Shown here piece after piece: positions 5,073 to 63,968 of a stretch of DNA of 64,000 bases. The stretch is from an uncultured Lachnospiraceae bacterium (lineage in GTDB: Bacteria > Bacillota > Clostridia > Lachnospirales > Lachnospiraceae): NCBI GenBank assembly GCA_934402055.1, contig CAKRTC010000005.1, forward strand, positions 19,267 through 83,266, read 5' to 3'. How positions within the stretch are numbered: the first letter of the stretch is position 1; each line of letters opens with the position of its first letter. The notes beneath the pieces were generated by a model that had not been told where the DNA came from, made no database searches, and worked only from the letters and a program-made list of their open reading frames with translations. The translations under genes and the position numbers were made by a program.

Positions 5073-6236
5073 GTGCGGATGAGAGAGATATATTTTGATA
5101 ATGCGGCAACGACAAGAGTACGTCCCGAGGTAATAAGCCTCATGGATGAGGTGATGGGGGTGAATTACGGCAATCCGTCGTCGAGACATATATTGGGAGT
5201 AAGAGCCGAAAACTACGTTAAGACAGCTGCGCAGCAGATAGCGCAGTCGCTTAAGGTAAAGCCTGGTGAGATAGTGTTTACCTCAGGGGGGACCGAGGGC
5301 AACAATATGGCTCTTATAGGTACCGCTCTTGCGAGAAAGGGCTACGGCAGACATATAATAAGCACCAATATCGAACATGCCGCGGTATATAAGCCTCTGG
5401 AGTTCCTTGAGTCCATGGGTTATGAGATAAGCATAGTAGGCACAGATAACAAGGGACATGTGGATATTGATGCCCTTAAGAGTATGATAAGACCGGACAC
5501 CATACTTGTAAGCGTTATGTGGGTCAATAACGAGATGGGAGCCATAGAAGACATACCTGCCATAGGCAAGCTTATAAAGGAGATCAATCCGAGGACCTAT
5601 TTCCATACAGATGCCATACAGGCCTACGGAAAGCTGACTTTAAGACCGAAGGAAGCTAATGTGGACATGCTGACGGTAAGCTCTCATAAGATACACGGGC
5701 CTAAGGGAGCAGGATTTATCTATATCAACGAAAAAGCACATGTATCACCTATAATACTCGGAGGCGGACAGCAAAAGGATATGCGTTCGGGTACGGATAA
5801 TGTCCCGGGGATAGCCGGAACCGGACTTGCGGCAGAACTCTACAGAAAAGAGCATGCCGACATTGAAAAGAAGATGCTTGAAGTTAAGGACAGACTTATA
5901 GACAGACTTTCCGAGCTTGAGGGTGTAACTATCAATTCAGAGAGAGGAGCTCTCTCGGCACCGCATGTGGTGAGTGCTTCATTTGCGGGAGTAAGGGCAG
6001 AGGTGTTGCTGCATGCTCTGGAAGAGCGTGGAATATATGTTTCTTCCGGCTCGGCATGCTCATCAAACCATCCGGCTATCAGCGGAACCCTTAAGGCAAT
6101 AGGCGTGAAACAGGAACTCCTGGATTCGACTATCAGATTTTCTTTCGGAATATACAATGAGCCGGAGGAAGCTGATATTTGTGTCGAGGCTATAGCCGAG
6201 CTGCTGCCGCAGCTTAGGAGATTTTGGAGACATTAA
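5073..6236 (+). CDS. Cysteine desulfurase, class V aminotransferase of NifS/IscS type
   Basis: 387 aa with MREIYFDNAATTRV, the PLP-lysine motif SSHKIHGPKGAGFIY, and the active-site Cys loop SSGSACSS. Its start is coupled to the rsmE stop. Confidence 0.85.
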   Translation: MRMREIYFDNAATTRVRPEVISLMDEVMGVNYGNPSSRHILGVRAENYVKTAAQQIAQSLKVKPGEIVFTSGGTEGNNMALIGTALARKGYGRHIISTNIEHAAVYKPLEFLESMGYEISIVGTDNKGHVDIDALKSMIRPDTILVSVMWVNNEMGAIEDIPAIGKLIKEINPRTYFHTDAIQAYGKLTLRPKEANVDMLTVSSHKIHGPKGAGFIYINEKAHVSPIILGGGQQKDMRSGTDNVPGIAGTGLAAELYRKEHADIEKKMLEVKDRLIDRLSELEGVTINSERGALSAPHVVSASFAGVRAEVLLHALEERGIYVSSGSACSSNHPAISGTLKAIGVKQELLDSTIRFSFGIYNEPEEADICVEAIAELLPQLRRFWRH

Positions 6237-6318
6237 GCAATCTGCCCGGCATGTGTCATGAAAACACTTATGTGTTTACATTAATTCATCTATTCGATTG
6301 CTTAATACAAAATGACAA

Positions 6319-6327
6319 TGCTATAAT
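6319..6327 (+). promoter_or_regulatory. Candidate extended -10 (TGcTATAAT) upstream of fba
   Basis: TGCTATAAT lies about 65 nt upstream of the fba ATG. No strong -35 is present. Confidence 0.3.
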
Positions 6328-6392
6328 TAACTTTAACTAAGGATATTACAGAAATTTAATAACTCGAAGTTTATACAAAAGGGGATTTTAAT

Positions 6393-7361
6393 ATGGCACT
6401 TGTTACTACGACAGAGATGTTCAAAAAAGCTTACAACGGCGGATATGCCGTAGGTGCTTTTAATGTTAATAATATGGAGATAGTACAGGGAATCACCGAG
6501 GCATGCAAAGAGGAGCATGCGCCGGTCATCCTTCAGGTATCCAAGGGCGCAAGAGCTTATGCCAACAACACATATCTTATCAAACTTGTTGAGGCGGCTG
6601 TTATCGAGTGCCCGGACATTCCTATCGCACTTCATCTTGATCACGGTCCGGACTTTGAGACCTGCAAGTCCTGCATAGACTCAGGCTTCACTTCGGTTAT
6701 GATCGATGCATCCTCACAGAGCTTTGAGAAGAATATCGAGATCACCAAGCAGGTGGTTGAGTATGCTCATGCACACGGAGTGGTTGTTGAGGCAGAGCTC
6801 GGTACACTTGCCGGTGTTGAGGATGATGTCAAGGTAGCGGCAGAGGATTCGTCCTATACCCAGGCTTCGGATGTTCAGGAGTTCGTGGAGCGTACAGGCT
6901 GCGATTCTCTTGCCATAGCTATAGGAACCTCACACGGTGCATACAAATTCAAGCCGGAGCAGTGCACAAGAAACGATAAGGGCGTTCTTGTACCGCCGCC
7001 GCTCAGATTCGATATCCTCAAGGATGTCGCACAGAGACTGCCGGGCTTCCCTATAGTATTGCACGGATCTTCGTCTGTTCCGCAGGAATTTGTTAAGCTT
7101 ATCAACGAGAACGGCGGCAAGATGCCGGATGCCATAGGTATTCCGGAATATGAGCTCAGAGAAGCGGCAAAGCTTGCGGTATGCAAGATAAATATCGATT
7201 CAGATATCCGTCTTGCCATGACAGGAAGCATCAGACAGTATATGGCAGAGCATCCGGACAAATTCGATCCTAGAGAGTATCTTAAGCCGGCAAGAGCAAA
7301 TATCAAGGAGCTTGTACGTCATAAGCTTATTGATGTACTCGGCTGCGCGGGAAAGGCGTGA
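6393..7361 (+). CDS. fba: Fructose-1,6-bisphosphate aldolase, class II
   Basis: 322 aa. MALVTTTEMFKKAYNGGYAVGAFNVNNME, with zinc-binding His motifs (LHLDHG, SHGAYK). Confidence 0.9.
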   Translation: MALVTTTEMFKKAYNGGYAVGAFNVNNMEIVQGITEACKEEHAPVILQVSKGARAYANNTYLIKLVEAAVIECPDIPIALHLDHGPDFETCKSCIDSGFTSVMIDASSQSFEKNIEITKQVVEYAHAHGVVVEAELGTLAGVEDDVKVAAEDSSYTQASDVQEFVERTGCDSLAIAIGTSHGAYKFKPEQCTRNDKGVLVPPPLRFDILKDVAQRLPGFPIVLHGSSSVPQEFVKLINENGGKMPDAIGIPEYELREAAKLAVCKINIDSDIRLAMTGSIRQYMAEHPDKFDPREYLKPARANIKELVRHKLIDVLGCAGKA

Positions 7362-12367: not shown

Positions 12368-14367
12368 TGACAGAGAACAACAATATTAAAGATAATGAAA
12401 ATAATGCCGTAAAGCCGGAGACAAAAACTACCGGAAGGAGAAAGCCGGGAGCAAAGCGCGGCACAAAGCCCGCATCGGCAGGAGAAAACGGCAAGACTGC
12501 CAAGCAGGCAGCAAAAAAGAATACTCAGAGCAAGAAAAACTCAGTAAAGTCCTCTTCGCCAAAGACTGCAAAGACTAAGGAAACGTCCAAGACCGGAGAA
12601 GCATCCAAGACTAAAGAAACATCCAAAACCAAAGGAACAGCAAAGTCAGGAACACGCACAAGGCAGAAGCAGAGTGGATTTGATATAGTGAGATCTGTGC
12701 TTGCACCTAAGACACGCCGCAGCAATAAAAAGATACGCATCATTCCGCTCGGAGGACTTGAGCAGATAGGAATGAATATCACAGTCATAGAGACCGATAA
12801 CAGCATGGTCATAGTTGACTGCGGAATGGCATTTCCGGATGAGGAGATGCTCGGCATAGATCTTGTTATTCCGGATATTACCTATCTCAGGGATAATGCT
12901 GATAAGATAGAGGGATTTTTCATCACTCACGGACATGAGGATCATATAGGAGCGCTCCCTTATGTATTAAGAAATCTTAATGTTCCTGTATATGCGACCA
13001 GACTTACACGCGCACTTATAGAGAATAAGCTCAGAGAGCACGGACTCATAGAGAGCGCCAAGCTTAATACCGTGCAGTATGGTGATGTGGTCAAGGCAGG
13101 GGATTTTGCCGTAGAGTTTATCAAGACCAATCACTCTATTCAGGATGCGGCCGCACTTGCAATACATTCACCTGCGGGAGTGGTGCTGCATACCGGAGAT
13201 TTTAAGGTTGATTATACACCTGTATTCGGAGATACCATTGATCTGCAGAGATTTGCCGAGCTGGGAAAACAGGGTGTGCTTGCACTTTTGTGTGATTCTA
13301 CAAATGCCACAAGACAGGGCTTCACCATGTCTGAGAAGACGGTAGGTCATACCTTTGAGGGAATATTCGGAGAAAACAAAGACAAGAGGATAATAGTCGC
13401 TACCTTTGCATCAAATGTTGACAGAGTTCAGCAGATCATAAGCGTTGCAGAGGAATATGACAGAAAAGTAGTCATAGACGGCCGTTCAATGATAAATGTA
13501 ATCAGTACGGCTTCCGAGCTTGGATATATCAAGATGAAGGATAATACTCTTATCGATATTTCCGAGATCAAAAACTATCCGGATGATAAGATAGTACTTA
13601 TAGTTACGGGCAGTCAGGGAGAGCCGATGGCGGCACTTTCACGTATGGCTACAGGACAGCACCGCAAGGTTCAGCTGTCCGAACATGATCTCATAGTATT
13701 GAGCTCAACGCCTATACCGGGTAATGAAAAGGCGGTATCCAAGGTCATCAATGAGCTTTCAAGAAAGGGTACCAAGGTAATATATCAGGATACCCACGTA
13801 TCTGGACATGCGTGTGCTGAGGAGCTTAAGCTTATATATACGCTTGTACATCCTAAGTTCTCTATTCCGGTGCACGGTGAGCTAAGACACAGACTTGCAC
13901 AGAAGGAAGTGGCAATAGCAATAGGCATGCCTAAGGAAAACTGTCATCTTGTAGATACCGGTGATGTTGTAGAACTTACACAGGATAGCTGCAAGGTGGT
14001 AGATAAGGTTCAGGCAGGCCCGATACTGGTTGACGGTCTCGGTATCGGAGACGTCGGTAATGCGGTCCTCAAAGATAGACAAAGCATGTCGCAGAATGGT
14101 ATCATAGTTGCGGCGGTATCGGTTGAAAAGGCTACGGGAGAATTCGTAGCAGGTCCGGAGATACTTACCAGAGGACTTGTTTATGTCAAGGAAAATGAAG
14201 ACATAATCGATGAAGCAAGAGATGTCGTACTGAGAGTTATGGACGATTGCCGCGGCATGAGAGATCTTAACAGGGTCAAGAATACCATCCGTAACGAGCT
14301 CAGCGATTATGTATGGCGCAGGATACAGCGGACACCTATGATCCTCGCAGTCATTACAGAGGTTTGA
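12364..14367 (+). CDS. rnj: Ribonuclease J (metallo-beta-lactamase / beta-CASP) with a ~120-aa Lys/Thr/Ser-rich N-terminal extension
   Basis: 667 aa. The RNase J core begins at KIRIIPLGGLEQIGMN and carries HGHEDH. The N-terminal 120 aa are low-complexity basic sequence with (K)TKETSKT repeats. The ATG overlaps the DUF1292 stop (ATGA). Confidence 0.9.
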   Translation: MMTENNNIKDNENNAVKPETKTTGRRKPGAKRGTKPASAGENGKTAKQAAKKNTQSKKNSVKSSSPKTAKTKETSKTGEASKTKETSKTKGTAKSGTRTRQKQSGFDIVRSVLAPKTRRSNKKIRIIPLGGLEQIGMNITVIETDNSMVIVDCGMAFPDEEMLGIDLVIPDITYLRDNADKIEGFFITHGHEDHIGALPYVLRNLNVPVYATRLTRALIENKLREHGLIESAKLNTVQYGDVVKAGDFAVEFIKTNHSIQDAAALAIHSPAGVVLHTGDFKVDYTPVFGDTIDLQRFAELGKQGVLALLCDSTNATRQGFTMSEKTVGHTFEGIFGENKDKRIIVATFASNVDRVQQIISVAEEYDRKVVIDGRSMINVISTASELGYIKMKDNTLIDISEIKNYPDDKIVLIVTGSQGEPMAALSRMATGQHRKVQLSEHDLIVLSSTPIPGNEKAVSKVINELSRKGTKVIYQDTHVSGHACAEELKLIYTLVHPKFSIPVHGELRHRLAQKEVAIAIGMPKENCHLVDTGDVVELTQDSCKVVDKVQAGPILVDGLGIGDVGNAVLKDRQSMSQNGIIVAAVSVEKATGEFVAGPEILTRGLVYVKENEDIIDEARDVVLRVMDDCRGMRDLNRVKNTIRNELSDYVWRRIQRTPMILAVITEV

Positions 14368-35590: not shown

Positions 35591-36541
35591 ATGAGAAAGA
35601 GTTTAAAGAGAGCCGCACTTATTGCAGCAACAGGAGCAATGCTTATAGGAAGCGCATTCTCCGCACAGGCTGCTTCGGTATACAACGGACAGTGGTGCCA
35701 GGAGTCAAACGGAGGCTGGTGGTACAAGCTTACAGAGGATGGTAAGACCTTCCTTGCAAACACTTGGTACTGGATCAAGGATGCGGATGGTGTTGTAAGA
35801 TGCTACTACTTTGATTACAACGGATGGCTTCAGAAAGACAAGACTATCGACGGTGAGACAGTAGATTCTGACGGACGTTGGGTAAAGAACGGCAAGGTAC
35901 AGGAGGCAGATGCTTCCAAGGAGTATGCTACAAGCATAGACTTTGCAAAGCTTCACCAGACAACAACAAGCAACACAAGCACCAACAAGACAACAACAAG
36001 TACAGCAGGACTTAAGAAGAACGGCGGTAAGAAGACATATAAGTCATCCGGTAAGGGAGATAATCCGAAGTCGGTAGCAGCAACACAGGGCTATACCAAC
36101 TCCACCGTAACAGGTTCAACCATTACCAACAGCTGGGCTAACTTCCAGTTTACACTTTCGGGAGCTACTCCTAAGGTTGATACAACAGGATCCGGAACAG
36201 ATATCTATACAGATTCGGATACAACATCAGATCTGTTTATCACATATTATCCGATGGATAAGTATACCGCAGGCAATACCAATATAGATACCTTCATCAC
36301 AGGCTTCCTTGCAGACGCAAGAGGATATAAGGGCGGAGCCAAGGCAGCGGATATACAGCTCGGAGCATATACCTTCAAGCAGCTTACAAAGACTGTCAAC
36401 ACACCTGAGGGTAAGATGTACGATAATGCTTATATCAGAGCAATCGACGGAACAAACTACGCAATGGTCATCACAGTTGAGAAGAACGGTAATTCACAGG
36501 ATTATCTGTCATCACTCAAGACCATGGCTAAGGTAAGATAA
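35591..36541 (+). CDS. Secreted protein with N-terminal cell-wall-binding (choline-binding-type) repeats, a Thr/Asn/Ser-rich linker and a C-terminal domain of unknown function
   Basis: 316 aa. The signal peptide MRKSLKRAALIAATGAMLIGSAFSAQA precedes three aromatic repeats of roughly 20 aa (GGWWYKLTEDGK, WYWIKDADG, NGWLQKDKTIDG). The linker reads TTTSNTSTNKTTTST. Confidence 0.55.
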   Translation: MRKSLKRAALIAATGAMLIGSAFSAQAASVYNGQWCQESNGGWWYKLTEDGKTFLANTWYWIKDADGVVRCYYFDYNGWLQKDKTIDGETVDSDGRWVKNGKVQEADASKEYATSIDFAKLHQTTTSNTSTNKTTTSTAGLKKNGGKKTYKSSGKGDNPKSVAATQGYTNSTVTGSTITNSWANFQFTLSGATPKVDTTGSGTDIYTDSDTTSDLFITYYPMDKYTAGNTNIDTFITGFLADARGYKGGAKAADIQLGAYTFKQLTKTVNTPEGKMYDNAYIRAIDGTNYAMVITVEKNGNSQDYLSSLKTMAKVR

Positions 36542-61937: not shown

Positions 61938-63128
61938 ATGGCAAAGGAACATTTTAACAGAAGTAAGCCGCATTTAAATATCGGAACTATCGGACACGTT
62001 GACCACGGTAAGACAACTCTTACAGCTGCTATCACAAGAGTACTTTCAGAGAGAATTGCCGGTAACGATAAGGTAGACTTCGAGAACATCGATAAGGCTC
62101 CGGAAGAGAGAGAGAGAGGTATCACAATCAACACTGCTCACGTTGAGTATCAGACAGAGAAGCGTCACTATGCTCACGTTGACTGCCCTGGCCATGCTGA
62201 CTACGTTAAGAACATGATCACAGGTGCTGCACAGATGGATGGTGCTATCCTCGTTGTTGCTGCTACTGACGGAGTTATGGCTCAGACAAGAGAGCATATC
62301 CTTCTTGCTCGTCAGGTAGGCGTTCCTTACATCGTTGTATTCATGAACAAGTGCGACATGGTTGAGGATGATGAGCTTCTTGAGCTCGTTGAGATGGAGA
62401 TCAGAGATCTTCTTAACGAGTATGACTTCCCGGGCGATGACGTTCCGATCATCCGTGGTTCAGCTCTTAAGGCTCTTGAGGGAGAGAAAGAGTGGGAGGA
62501 CAAGATCATGGAGCTTATGGATGCCGTTGATGAGTATATTCCGGATCCTGCTCGTGAGACAGATAAGCCTTTCCTTATGCCTGTTGAGGACGTATTCACA
62601 ATCACAGGTCGTGGAACAGTTGCTACAGGTAGAGTAGAGCGTGGTGTTCTTCACCTCAATGATGCTCTTGAGATCGTTGGTATCAAGGAAGACAACATGA
62701 AGACTGTTGTTACAGGTATCGAGATGTTCCGTAAGCTTCTTGATGAGGCTCAGGCAGGAGATAACATCGGTGCACTTCTTCGTGGTGTTAACAGAGATCA
62801 GATCGAGCGTGGACAGGTTCTCTGCAAGCCGGATTCTGTAAAGTGCTACAAGAACTTCAAGGGTCAGGTTTACGTTCTTACAAAGGACGAGGGTGGCCGT
62901 CATACACCGTTCTTCACACATTACAGACCGCAGTTCTACTTCCGTACAACAGATATCACAGGTCAGTGTGATCTTCCGGAAGGCGTAGAGATGTGTATGC
63001 CTGGCGATAACGTAGAGATGACTGTAGAGCTCATCCACCCAATCGCTATGGAGAAGGGACTTCGTTTCGCTATCCGTGAGGGTGGCCGTACAGTAGGTTC
63101 AGGAAGAGTTTCTGAGATCCTTGGCTAA
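61938..63128 (+). CDS. tuf: Elongation factor Tu
   Basis: 396 aa. [15 protein letters not shown] and DCPGHADY are the EF-Tu G motifs. Confidence 0.95.
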
Positions 63129-63130
63129 CA

Positions 63131-63168
63131 ATGAGTTAGGTGCCATATAGGCATAATAAAGAGGCTGC
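63131..63168. repeat. Inverted, internally deleted copy of the downstream 92-nt repeat unit (left arm)
   Basis: ATGAGTTAGGTGCCA is the reverse complement of the unit 3' end TGGCACCTAACTCAT/GTT. AGGCATAATAAAGAGGCT is the reverse complement of the unit 5' end AAGCCTCTTTTATTATGCCT. Together they form a long imperfect hairpin with copy A across the tuf stop region. Confidence 0.6.
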
Positions 63169-63180
63169 AAGCTTGCTTGC

Positions 63181-63272
63181 AAGCCTCTTTTATTATGCCT
63201 ATGACGACATTCAACGAATGTCGTCAATCGACGAAAAGCGAAGCTTTTTGGAGATTGGCACCTAACTCGTTG
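63181..63272. repeat. Direct repeat unit, copy A (92 nt, contains two perfect hairpins)
   Basis: It is identical to copy B except for one base (A at 63241 versus G at 63373). It contains GACGACATTC-aac-GAATGTCGTC and AAAAGC-gaa-GCTTTT. Confidence 0.8.
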
Positions 63273-63312
63273 TTAAGTTTGTATAATGGAGATACACGCT
63301 TAACTCTTTCAC

Positions 63313-63404
63313 AAGCCTCTTTTATTATGCCTATGACGACATTCAACGAATGTCGTCAATCGACGAAAAGCGGAGCTTTTTGGAGATTGGCACCTAACTC
63401 GTTA
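63313..63404. repeat. Direct repeat unit, copy B
   Basis: It is a 132-nt-period tandem duplicate of copy A. Both copies are followed by related TGTATAATGGAG / TGTGTAGAATGGAGG segments. Confidence 0.8.
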
Positions 63405-63474
63405 TTAATTGTGTAGAATGGAGGCATAATGCACGCGATCGACGAACGCGAAGCGTTTGTAGATATTTCCACAG

Positions 63475-63500
63475 CAAAAAAGCGGCCTTTCGACCGCTGT
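63475..63500 (-). terminator. Weak candidate terminator for the marR-family gene (minus strand)
   Basis: On the minus strand, GCGGTCGAAAGGCCGC is followed by TTTTT. The stem is imperfect. Confidence 0.35.
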
Positions 63501-63530
63501 ATTACTCTTTGCATATAGTTTAACTTTATA

Positions 63531-63968
63531 TCAGTTCTGGTTGGCAAGTCTTGCCGCGTTATCGGCAATGACCTTAAGATGGTGTCTGAACACATCCATC
63601 TGTTCATCACTTAAGCCTTCGGTGACTTCGTGATTAAGACGGGTAATGATATCGTTGACAGGAGTCTCAAGGGCTTTGCCTGCATCTGTAAGATGAACGA
63701 TAACCTTACGTCTGTCATCCATGCGGAATGAACGGTTGATAAGCTCCTTATCTTCGAGTCTGCCCAGTATACCGGTTACTGTCGAAGAGTCAAGATTCAA
63801 GGTCTCTGCAAGCTGAGACGGCATTTGTCCGTCCTCTTCCCAGAGACATTTAAGTGTTGCATACTGAATCGGTGTAACATCAAGACAGGCAAGTTCTCTT
63901 TTAAAATATGTGAATACAGTATTCTGTGCGTTGGTTAATAAAAAGTTGATACATTCCTGTAATTTCAT
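63531..63968 (-). CDS. MarR-family transcriptional regulator
   Basis: 145 aa with a winged HTH (LDVTPIQYATLKCLWEEDGQMPSQLAETLNLDSSTVTGILGRLE). It is convergent with tuf. Confidence 0.85.
   Translation of the reverse strand: MKLQECINFLLTNAQNTVFTYFKRELACLDVTPIQYATLKCLWEEDGQMPSQLAETLNLDSSTVTGILGRLEDKELINRSFRMDDRRKVIVHLTDAGKALETPVNDIITRLNHEVTEGLSDEQMDVFRHHLKVIADNAARLANQN

Follow-up and report, generated by a model that had tools for sequence, protein, structure and literature searches.

Near the 3' end of a 64,000-nucleotide (nt) stretch of DNA from an uncultured Lachnospiraceae bacterium (GCA_934402055.1, contig CAKRTC010000005.1, positions 19,267 to 83,266; hereafter the window), a 402-nt spacer separates the tuf gene (61938-63128, plus strand) from a convergent marR gene (63531-63968, minus strand), the product of which was recognized as MarR by Pfam. 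This spacer, the subject of the present analysis, houses an array of hairpin-rich units. Its most conspicuous feature is a direct repeat, in which the segment 63180-63291 (covering copy A) recurs at 63312-63423 (covering copy B) with 96% identity over 112 nt and a period of 132. Tandem Repeats Finder recovered it as 1.8 copies at 63180-63423 (no strand assigned; period 132, matches 95%, score 453) and as the sole sizeable tandem repeat of the window; comparison of strains shows that it behaves as a variable-number tandem repeat (VNTR). A first-pass annotation of this DNA had described two direct copies behind tuf with this period, a single A/G difference in a 92-nt core and two hairpins in each copy, and all of this is borne out. 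Direct reading of the core gives one mismatch, A63241 versus G63373; the 23-nt hairpin GACGACATTC-AAC-GAATGTCGTC occurs exactly twice in the 64 kb, with 0 occurrences expected by chance; and the hairpin AAAAGC-GRA-GCTTTT is found in both direct copies. The proposed capacity of the region to fold strongly was equally confirmed, with a 416-nt region reaching -159.8 kcal/mol as against -99.1 kcal/mol for shuffles (z = -10.9), as was the absence of the unit from the remainder of the window, in which we found no recurrence. At the Rfam gathering score, zero RNA families were recovered from the window (1-64000), and ARAGORN called zero tRNAs. This gathering-mode null was obtained although a conserved run of large open reading frames (ORFs) precedes rpsL-rpsG-fusA-tuf, a setting in which one could expect leaders of ribosomal-protein genes.

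The minimum free energy (MFE) fold of 63126-63275, on the plus strand, is a single closed four-way junction, with a closing stem, P1, and three hairpins, P2, P3 and P4. The 5' strand of P1 (TAACAATGAGTTAGGTGCC, 63126-63144), which aligns to P1 of the Rfam model RF01699, contains the tuf stop codon TAA (63126-63128) and pairs with the 3' strand (GGCACCTAACTCGTTGTTA, 63257-63275), the latter being detected both as an inverted repeat and in the MFE fold. P2 (63147-63202) is a 56-nt hairpin with a G(CUUG)C tip, delineated by an inverted repeat, the RF01699 alignment, the terminator scan (63166-63184) and the MFE fold. P3 (63203-63225), recovered as an inverted repeat and in the fold, is the perfect 10-bp stem with a 3-nt loop, GACGACATTC-AAC-GAATGTCGTC. 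P4 (63226-63256), identified by a structural descriptor match and by strand energies, reads AAUC-GA-CGAAAAGC-GAA-GCUUUUUG-GA-GAUU and features tandem G.A pairs, one G.U pair and a GNA triloop. We named this unit alpha and further unit types beta to zeta, and use L001-L091 as labels for the retrieved loci or assemblies. The P3 stem sequence changes with compensation in the beta, gamma, delta, epsilon and zeta units. The stretch 63131-63168 had been taken for an inverted, internally deleted copy of the repeat. Its complementarity is real, with the P1 arms TAACAATGAGTTAGGTGCCA and TGGCACCTAACTCGTTGTTA pairing over 20 nt at 95% and the second half of 63126-63160 pairing with the start of copy A over 14 nt at 100%, but it is not a separate element: it comprises the 5' strands of P1 and P2 of copy A's own unit. 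Judging from the sequences compared, the four-stem unit appears to span about 130-150 nt, with three variable stems and P4 as the sole sequence-conserved hairpin.

In a sensitive Rfam scan, 63138-63263 aligned to the full RF01699 model, Clostridiales-1 RNA (positions 1-166), across all four stems with 43.6 bits (E = 4.8e-8); sister units scored 35.8 and 28.1 bits. The window unit shares the topology of Clostridiales-1, namely a closing P1 and three hairpins. Further resemblances are a long P2 capped by G(CUUG)C, with AAG-CUUG-CUU of the window alpha unit aligning to GCUUGC of the model, and a P4 with a GNA triloop and a purine-rich internal loop. The CUUG tip on P2 is also present in gamma, delta and epsilon, with beta and zeta carrying UUUA instead. 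The two also agree in their occurrence in human-gut Clostridia as several copies per genome with no fixed gene association: at least four variant units and one canonical unit occur in the same species, and the loci come from human-gut metagenomes or metagenome-assembled genomes. In contrast, the window P4 (AAUC-GA-CGA...UUG-GA-GAUU) departs from the canonical one (GGAUUGC-GRGA...GGA-GCAAUCC), and the covariance-model alignment marks non-canonical pairs within it; P3 is a short perfect hairpin without the canonical GA-rich internal loops; and the window P2, with its A and U tracts, is terminator-like. Since canonical copies of 115-117 bits coexist in the same species (L080:11364-11523 and one in L075), the units described here appear to form a divergent subfamily of their own rather than to be orthologues of the canonical RNA. 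The canonical copy at L080:11364-11523 (plus strand, 117 bits) follows directly on an enoyl-CoA hydratase gene and its terminator, ~1.8 kb past the array and just outside the 3' end of the window; that in L075 (1-1053) has two tRNA genes and the beginning of a 16S rRNA gene ~120 nt away on the opposite strand. A match to TD-1 on the minus strand (E = 0.065 only) was rejected. Weinberg et al. (2010, PMC2864571) judged Clostridiales-1 a probable RNA without a cis-regulatory role; in the literature searched, we found neither later functional work on it since 2010 nor a description of arrays with truncated units.

The junction fold is retained across units that have little else in common. Thus, when folded singly, 13 of 13 units adopt P1 plus three hairpins in spite of unrelated stem sequences, and cognate P1 strands pair at 8-10 of 10 positions, compared to 4.0 +/- 1.9 for non-cognate strands. 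For covariation, pairs were counted on structure-anchored columns, because MAFFT alignments (of whole units or with P2 excised) shifted the stem registers and were not used; the stem columns display 3-5 pair types, with shuffled partners pairing at 46-73% and never reaching the observed level in 1000 trials. A second line of evidence comes from the exchange of modules between units. Alpha and zeta share P2 (78% identity versus 57 +/- 4% for shuffles), with P1 and P3 at background, while the gamma units of L029 and L079 are 100% identical in P1, P3 and P4 with a P2 near background (64%). P2 was thus kept while the two P1 strands flanking it changed jointly and remained complementary, which argues that P1 closure is under selection, as far as sequence comparison can tell.

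The tuf-sense strand is more stable than its reverse complement by 6-20 kcal/mol in all 13 of the 13 units; for P4 alone the energies are -11.1 on the given strand and -4.3 on the reverse complement, a difference of ~7 kcal/mol. The tandem G.A and G.U pairs, the GNA triloops and the CUUG tetraloop make sense on the given strand only. Further, the canonical copy and the epsilon unit in L080 are convergent and a few hundred nt apart; an orientation set by transcription fits better than one set by replication, because these opposed units are each sense to their own upstream gene. We then searched with a sequence-free P4 descriptor (outer stem, GA, 6-10-bp stem, GNA loop, returning stem, GA, outer stem), which matched 39 times in Clostridia DNA (330 kb) and never in control DNA (379 kb). 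The sequence AUC-GA-CGA...UUG-GA-GAU is common to all 39, with only the apical stem covarying, and this P4 base is invariant across at least five genera. As the sole sequence-constrained part of the family, P4 is a likely contact site of a partner. A reading of P4 as a K-turn was discarded, its register being incompatible with the covarying apical stem.

The P2 hairpin has the features of an intrinsic terminator, i.e., a G+C-rich hairpin followed by a U-tract just past the stop codon. We scored this explicitly by the energy of the core hairpin and the count of U in the next 8 nt: the G+C-rich core of alpha P2 (63161-63187, -15.6 kcal/mol) is followed by the U-tract TTTTATTA (63188-63195; 6 of 8 U). 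Core energies are -15.6, -21.4 and -22.7 kcal/mol for alpha, beta and zeta, respectively, with 5-7 U in the next 8 nt, which is comparable to the plain tuf terminators of sister species lacking the unit (-18.7 and -23.2 kcal/mol, 5-7 U). The built-in terminator scan flagged alpha P2 and missed those of beta and zeta, but it likewise missed the undisputed plain tuf terminator of L091; these negatives are uninformative because pairing of the A-run with the U-tract extends the stem, as in the L091 terminator. Thus, the suggestion that the locus is not a plain tuf terminator, for want of a U-tract, stands insofar as it is more than a plain terminator, while the U-tract does exist: the long hairpin 63147-63202, with its core followed by TTTTATTA, had been overlooked. 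P2 of the intact unit probably ends tuf transcription, to judge from these sequence features. In promoter-led and canonical units, P2 is mostly devoid of terminator features.

Downstream of the intact alpha unit, the array on the plus strand consists of partial units and linkers. Tail A (AGTTTGTATAATGGAGAT, 63276-63293) is a linker ending in the GGAGAT of P4, with homologues in tail B and in the tails of L002 and L080. It is followed by a leftover 3' P1 strand of the beta type, ACACGCTTAACTC, then TTTCAC (63294-63312), matching the GCACGCTTAACTC-TTTCAC that closes the intact beta units of L004, L006 and L008. Copy B is a 5'-truncated alpha unit (63313-63407) comprising the P2 3' half (63313-63334), P3 (63335-63357), P4 (63358-63388) and the 3' P1 strand (63389-63407). 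Lacking the 5' P1 strand and the P2 5' half, it cannot close, and its P2 half is unpaired in the MFE fold; this same truncated piece recurs behind the intact beta unit in L004, L006 and L008, and twice in L080. Tail B (ATTGTGTAGAATGGAGGCATA, 63408-63428), homologous to tail A, has its GGAGG changed to GAAGG in L080. A beta stump (63429-63464) comes next, with the P3 3' half ATGCACGC and P4 GATCGACGAACGCGAAGCGTTTGTAGAT, the GGAG being GTAG in the window strain, in the same register as the interior of intact beta in L003 and L004. The far boundary of the array is set by the intrinsic terminator of marR, located by the terminator scan on the minus strand (63471-63498; AGCGGTCGAAAGGCCGCT then TTTTTTGCTGT). 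Tails A and B correspond to the two promoter- and Shine-Dalgarno-like boxes that the first-pass annotation had proposed; neither appeared in the promoter scan, both are without a -35 element and a correctly spaced TG, and both are simply homologous tails ending in the same GGAGAT as P4. Similarly, the 29-codon ORF (63429-63518, plus strand) read behind GGAGG does exist, but the gene reading of it fails. It is an accidental frame spanning the beta stump and running through the marR terminator; every beta unit contains this frame but no Shine-Dalgarno sequence for it, a stop shortens it to 11 codons in L003 and L007, and the GGAGG ahead of it is gone in L080. A small protein gene was hence rejected, neither the ORF nor its ribosome-binding site being conserved in other strains. 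Hand-reading of the 3' P1 strand gave 0 substitutions in intact versus 4 in truncated alpha copies, a trend that is not significant and was not used as evidence.

Comparison of the spacer across strains, with alleles defined as assemblies encoding an identical MarR protein, revealed lengths of 204, 206, 270, 377, 402 and 420 nt, composed of alpha or beta units. L001 and L005 have a single intact alpha and then the beta stump; the window has the intact alpha, the leftover beta 3' P1 strand, the truncated alpha and the beta stump; L080 has an intact and two truncated alpha units; L004, L006 and L008 have an intact beta, a truncated alpha and the beta stump; and L003 and L007 have a beta unit minus its 3' P1 strand. 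The 132-nt repeat thus ranges from one alpha copy (L001, L005) through two (window) to three (L080), answering in the affirmative whether copy number varies between strains, a check that the annotation had proposed. The tuf-proximal slot holds one intact unit, the beta of L003 and L007 occupying it without the 3' P1 strand. Beta departs from alpha in P1, P3 and apical P4 through compensatory changes, and in P2 the two are unrelated. Flanking single-nucleotide polymorphisms (SNPs) form a mosaic unlinked to unit type, the usable sites being those on the marR side and a few in tuf. In L004 (3816-5008), tuf is split into two ORFs of 304 and 93 amino acids by a frameshift that is probably an assembly error and that distorted the SNP table.

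Three sister species were reached via MarR orthologues. In the one with 92% MarR identity, tuf is followed by an intact zeta unit and then a truncated alpha-like unit; those with 83% and 73% MarR identity have an ordinary intrinsic terminator behind tuf and no unit. Because of these plain terminators, the array appears, at the level of sequence, to be a lineage-specific acquisition. In one strain of the 83% species (L090:3090-5441), an IS66-family element (TnpB_IS66 and DDE_Tnp_IS66) sits by marR, where other strains have tuf, and the tuf-marR spacer looks like an insertion hot spot. Variation extends beyond the hydratase gene: comparing L001 with L003 and L080, some strains have an OCD-like gene there and others a 240-amino-acid ORF and a two-component system, with the structured units sitting at the boundary of this strain-variable DNA.

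The family is dispersed in these genomes and beyond. The species representative GCA_030540255.1 carries further units with new P1, P2 and P3 and the same P4, namely gamma at L029 and delta with a mini-unit at L059. At L080:11540-11870 (minus strand) lies epsilon, a four-stem unit with P1 strands AAAATGCC/GGCATTTT, a CUUG-capped P2 and a different P4; it lies downstream of an OCD/mu-crystallin-like gene, and two P4-like modules ~116 nt apart are found behind it. Units that we term L-type, with the same P4 base, occur in Blautia, Acetatifactor, Coprococcus, Candidatus Limivivens and other Lachnospiraceae, with near-identical P1, P3 and P4 in five genera. Our first pattern for searching genome collections was too loose (about 50 of its 68 loci were chance matches in unrelated phyla, kept as a negative control); the strict P4 pattern detected about 5 copies per genome, and a metagenome scan returned 6 loci. 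No copies were found in the viral, phage or plasmid collections searched. The layout of an intact unit followed by truncated ones recurs at the gamma locus (L029, L077, L079), with a variable number of truncated units at a period of 76, and the groEL-apt spacer of another species (L065, L078, L082) has 0, 1 or 2 extra modules with a period of ~66. Break points are likewise recurrent, lying in the P2 loop (window copy B, L004, L023) or the P3 loop (beta stump, L039). At L023, a gene for a PD-(D/E)XK nuclease-family transposase (PDDEXK_2; 5685-6407) lies just upstream of a 5'-truncated L-type unit, a single instance.

With respect to gene context, the unit lies directly downstream of a co-oriented gene at 11 of 16 loci, and the stop codon falls inside P1 for tuf in the window and for Rpe in L024. 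The genes preceding units include those for EF-Tu, GroEL, Rpe, ProRS, IMPDH, DnaB, PMI-ROK and enoyl-CoA hydratase. At the remaining 5 of the 16, the unit sits behind a divergent gene, and a promoter-like box could be read just upstream in three (gamma, L063, L065). No gene class was consistently associated with the units over these 16 loci. Purine-metabolism neighbors were seen at three of the ~16, perhaps by chance: a purF-like leader (L063), upstream of apt (L065/L078/L082) and downstream of guaB, which codes for IMPDH (L039).

Taken together, we consider it probable, albeit with clear reservations, that the spacer holds members of a dispersed structured-RNA family related to Clostridiales-1, one of them intact and several in decay, that the intact unit supplies the tuf terminator while read-through RNA closes and displays P4, and that the 132-nt repeat is a VNTR made by recombination. 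Under this proposal, the family would be active as RNA of the tuf-sense strand: the tuf-proximal unit would end tuf transcription with its P2, and read-through transcripts would fold into the closed junction and present P4, probably a protein-binding hairpin. The array itself would grow, shrink and be overwritten via DNA recombination, through unequal crossing-over between 132-nt repeats and through breakage or joining where hairpin tips or the short common GGAGAT lie. If the array changes in this way, the truncated copies would be decaying debris and not separate genes.

Several observations weigh against this proposal. The 43.6 bits of the window unit fall below the curated gathering threshold of 48, short of formal membership in RF01699, and most other variant units have no Rfam match at all. 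The covariation derives from stems taken from each unit's own MFE fold, which in part guarantees their being "100% paired". With efficient termination at P2, most transcripts would end before P3, P4 and the 3' P1 strand, leaving closure to read-through RNA, which sits awkwardly with the strong covariation of P1; moreover, L003 and L007 lack any 3' P1 strand, and closure is hence dispensable at the tuf locus. Since single-stranded DNA likewise forms stable tandem G.A pairs, G.T pairs and GCGAAGC mini-hairpins, a role of the family at the DNA level may still be entertained. Finally, the suggested recombination mechanisms are read from junction positions only, and the RNA-level activity of the family is a prediction from sequence and fold.

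Among the alternatives, the one to be taken most seriously, though still doubtful, is that the locus is a gene for a trans-acting small RNA, possibly a protein or ribosome sponge, with the intact unit as its functional product and perhaps also every additional P4 module along with its GGAG, the extra modules adding binding sites as in multi-hairpin RNAs of the CsrB/RsmZ type. The invariance of the P4 sequence and the persistence of an intact or near-intact P4 in most truncated copies would suit this, as would the canonical promoters ahead of some units, TTGACA-16-TATAAT in L063 and TTGACT-17-TATAAT in L065, L078 and L082, and a promoter-like -10 box, TGATATACT, read by eye at the gamma locus. 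Yet the window unit begins inside the tuf stop codon, which leaves no room for a promoter, and none was found there by the scan; a terminator-like P2 would cut the RNA; the GGA of P4 lies within a helix and not in a loop as in CsrA-binding sites; and the extra modules differ in extent at three loci, which fits decay better than design. Clostridiales-1 itself has been classed as a probable small RNA that is not cis-regulatory (Weinberg 2010, PMC2864571), and this classification, in speaking for a small RNA, equally speaks against a cis-regulatory leader or attenuator, in which the 3' P1 strand would alternate between junction closure and another pairing and thereby control read-through (in the window, antisense into marR). 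The gamma locus comes closest to such a device, with a promoter, the unit, truncated modules, an alternative hairpin with TGAGCCGTG and a U-tract, and the Shine-Dalgarno sequence and ATG of an isochorismatase gene in that order; in L077 (~7100-7300, minus strand), the last 3' P1 strand, GCACGGCTCA, can pair with the downstream TGAGCCGTG in a riboswitch-like layout. The unit in the purF-like leader of L063 and those upstream of apt in L065, L078 and L082 are also placed as leaders would be. However, the window has no co-oriented downstream gene, 11 of 16 units come after genes and not before them, and the genes concerned form no consistent class, making this very unlikely as an account of the array.

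The remaining alternatives invoke mobility or mere duplication. A miniature inverted-repeat transposable element (MITE), e.g., of the IS630/mariner type with a TA target duplication, would have P1 as its terminal inverted repeat and the partial copies as nested or abortive insertions. This would account for the inverted-repeat bounds with a TAAC start and GTTA end, for the two units beginning exactly in a stop codon (tuf in the window, rpe in L024) and for the near-identical P1, P3 and P4 of L-type units from five genera; an IS66 element has also landed in the same spacer of a sister species. We nevertheless regard it as quite unlikely: P1 differs completely among alpha to zeta, so that there is no single transposase site, a shared P1 being seen only in L-type units of other genera; being self-complementary, the TA flanks look the same as P1 pairs; an empty site with a single TA was not encountered, the only unit-free spacers being of unrelated sequence and confined to distant species; about 5 copies per genome were detected, and none in viral, plasmid or phage collections; and the internal stems covary, which is not required of MITEs. 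In the flanks, to which this search was confined, no transposase adjoined the units except the unrelated IS66 (L090) and PDDEXK_2 (L023). It is also unlikely that the family is a self-propagating modular structured element of an undescribed kind, which would settle at 3' ends of strongly expressed genes (tuf, groEL, rpe, guaB, proS), where its P2 would become the terminator, and overwrite residents from the 5' side. Such an element would leave behind a stack of 5'-truncated predecessors and might be copied via an RNA or single-stranded-DNA intermediate recognized at the invariant P4; the swapping of modules with matched P1 strands could be part of its mechanism, because this is what the alpha-zeta and gamma L029-L079 comparisons display. 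A recent functionless local duplication of an ordinary terminator region, the null envisaged by the first-pass annotation should the unit prove unique to the locus, draws on the 95-96% identity of the copies, their strain-variable number and the strains without a closable unit. It is a highly improbable account of the intact unit, for which the dispersed family and the P4 descriptor refute it: there is massive compensatory variation, P4 is conserved across genera, and the intact-plus-truncated layout recurs at unrelated loci and species. It is valid only for the truncated copies, which are debris in our favored reading too. Least of all do we credit attachment-site (att) scars, left by an integrase that targets the 3' part of an RNA gene, as with tRNA and tmRNA genes, and leaves displaced 3' partial copies. 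An intact structured-RNA gene with direct 3' partial repeats, as seen here at three loci, is the classic att signature and a genuine likeness to tRNA/tmRNA duplications, but the linkers between copies are just 19-40 nt, no integrase or island lies between the copies in 11 of 11 alleles, and no viral copies were found. Thus, of the earlier suggestions of a MITE or REP-like repeat, a pair of small-RNA genes or an attachment scar, what survives is a dispersed structured family that is REP-like or small-RNA-like; the different termini of each copy speak against the MITE, and the missing integrase and island against the scar. A CRISPR-like array was rejected since the "spacers" are identical, and a diversity-generating retroelement or retron since no reverse-transcriptase gene was called in the flanks examined.

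Among known repeats, the closest parallels to the array favored here are the repetitive extragenic palindromic (REP) elements and the bacterial interspersed mosaic elements (BIMEs) of enterobacteria, which are likewise hairpin-rich extragenic repeats after stop codons, often between convergent genes, with a copy number that varies between strains. REP/BIME elements act as 3'-end stabilizers and partial terminators. However, REPs are single conserved hairpins of ~35 nt, present in hundreds of copies and linked to RAYT transposases, whereas the present units form four-way junctions of ~140 nt, number only a few per genome and differ in their stems from copy to copy. The BOX elements of Streptococcus pneumoniae (boxA-boxB(n)-boxC), RUP and Correia-type MITEs are comparable as modular intergenic repeats in which the number of internal modules varies, with a predicted stable RNA structure and co-transcription with neighboring genes. 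There is no sequence relationship to BOX, the modules of which are conserved in sequence where only P4 is so here, and the variable-number part of the present array is a 5'-truncated unit and not an internal module.

These findings supply the orphan Clostridiales-1 RNA, abundant in the human gut, with several handles: units behind tuf, groEL and other core genes, an apparent role in termination, and an invariant P4. The wild gut strains constitute a natural allelic series of no unit, an unclosable unit, and one, two or three copies. Further, a hypervariable VNTR beside a universal marker gene may be useful for strain typing and a hazard for assembly, and its contents caution against annotating small ORFs or promoters in such spacers. 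Elsewhere in the window, two in-ORF tandem repeats, at 12571-12639 (period 18, 3.8 copies) and 35958-36000 (period 15, 2.9 copies), are probably low-complexity coding repeats.

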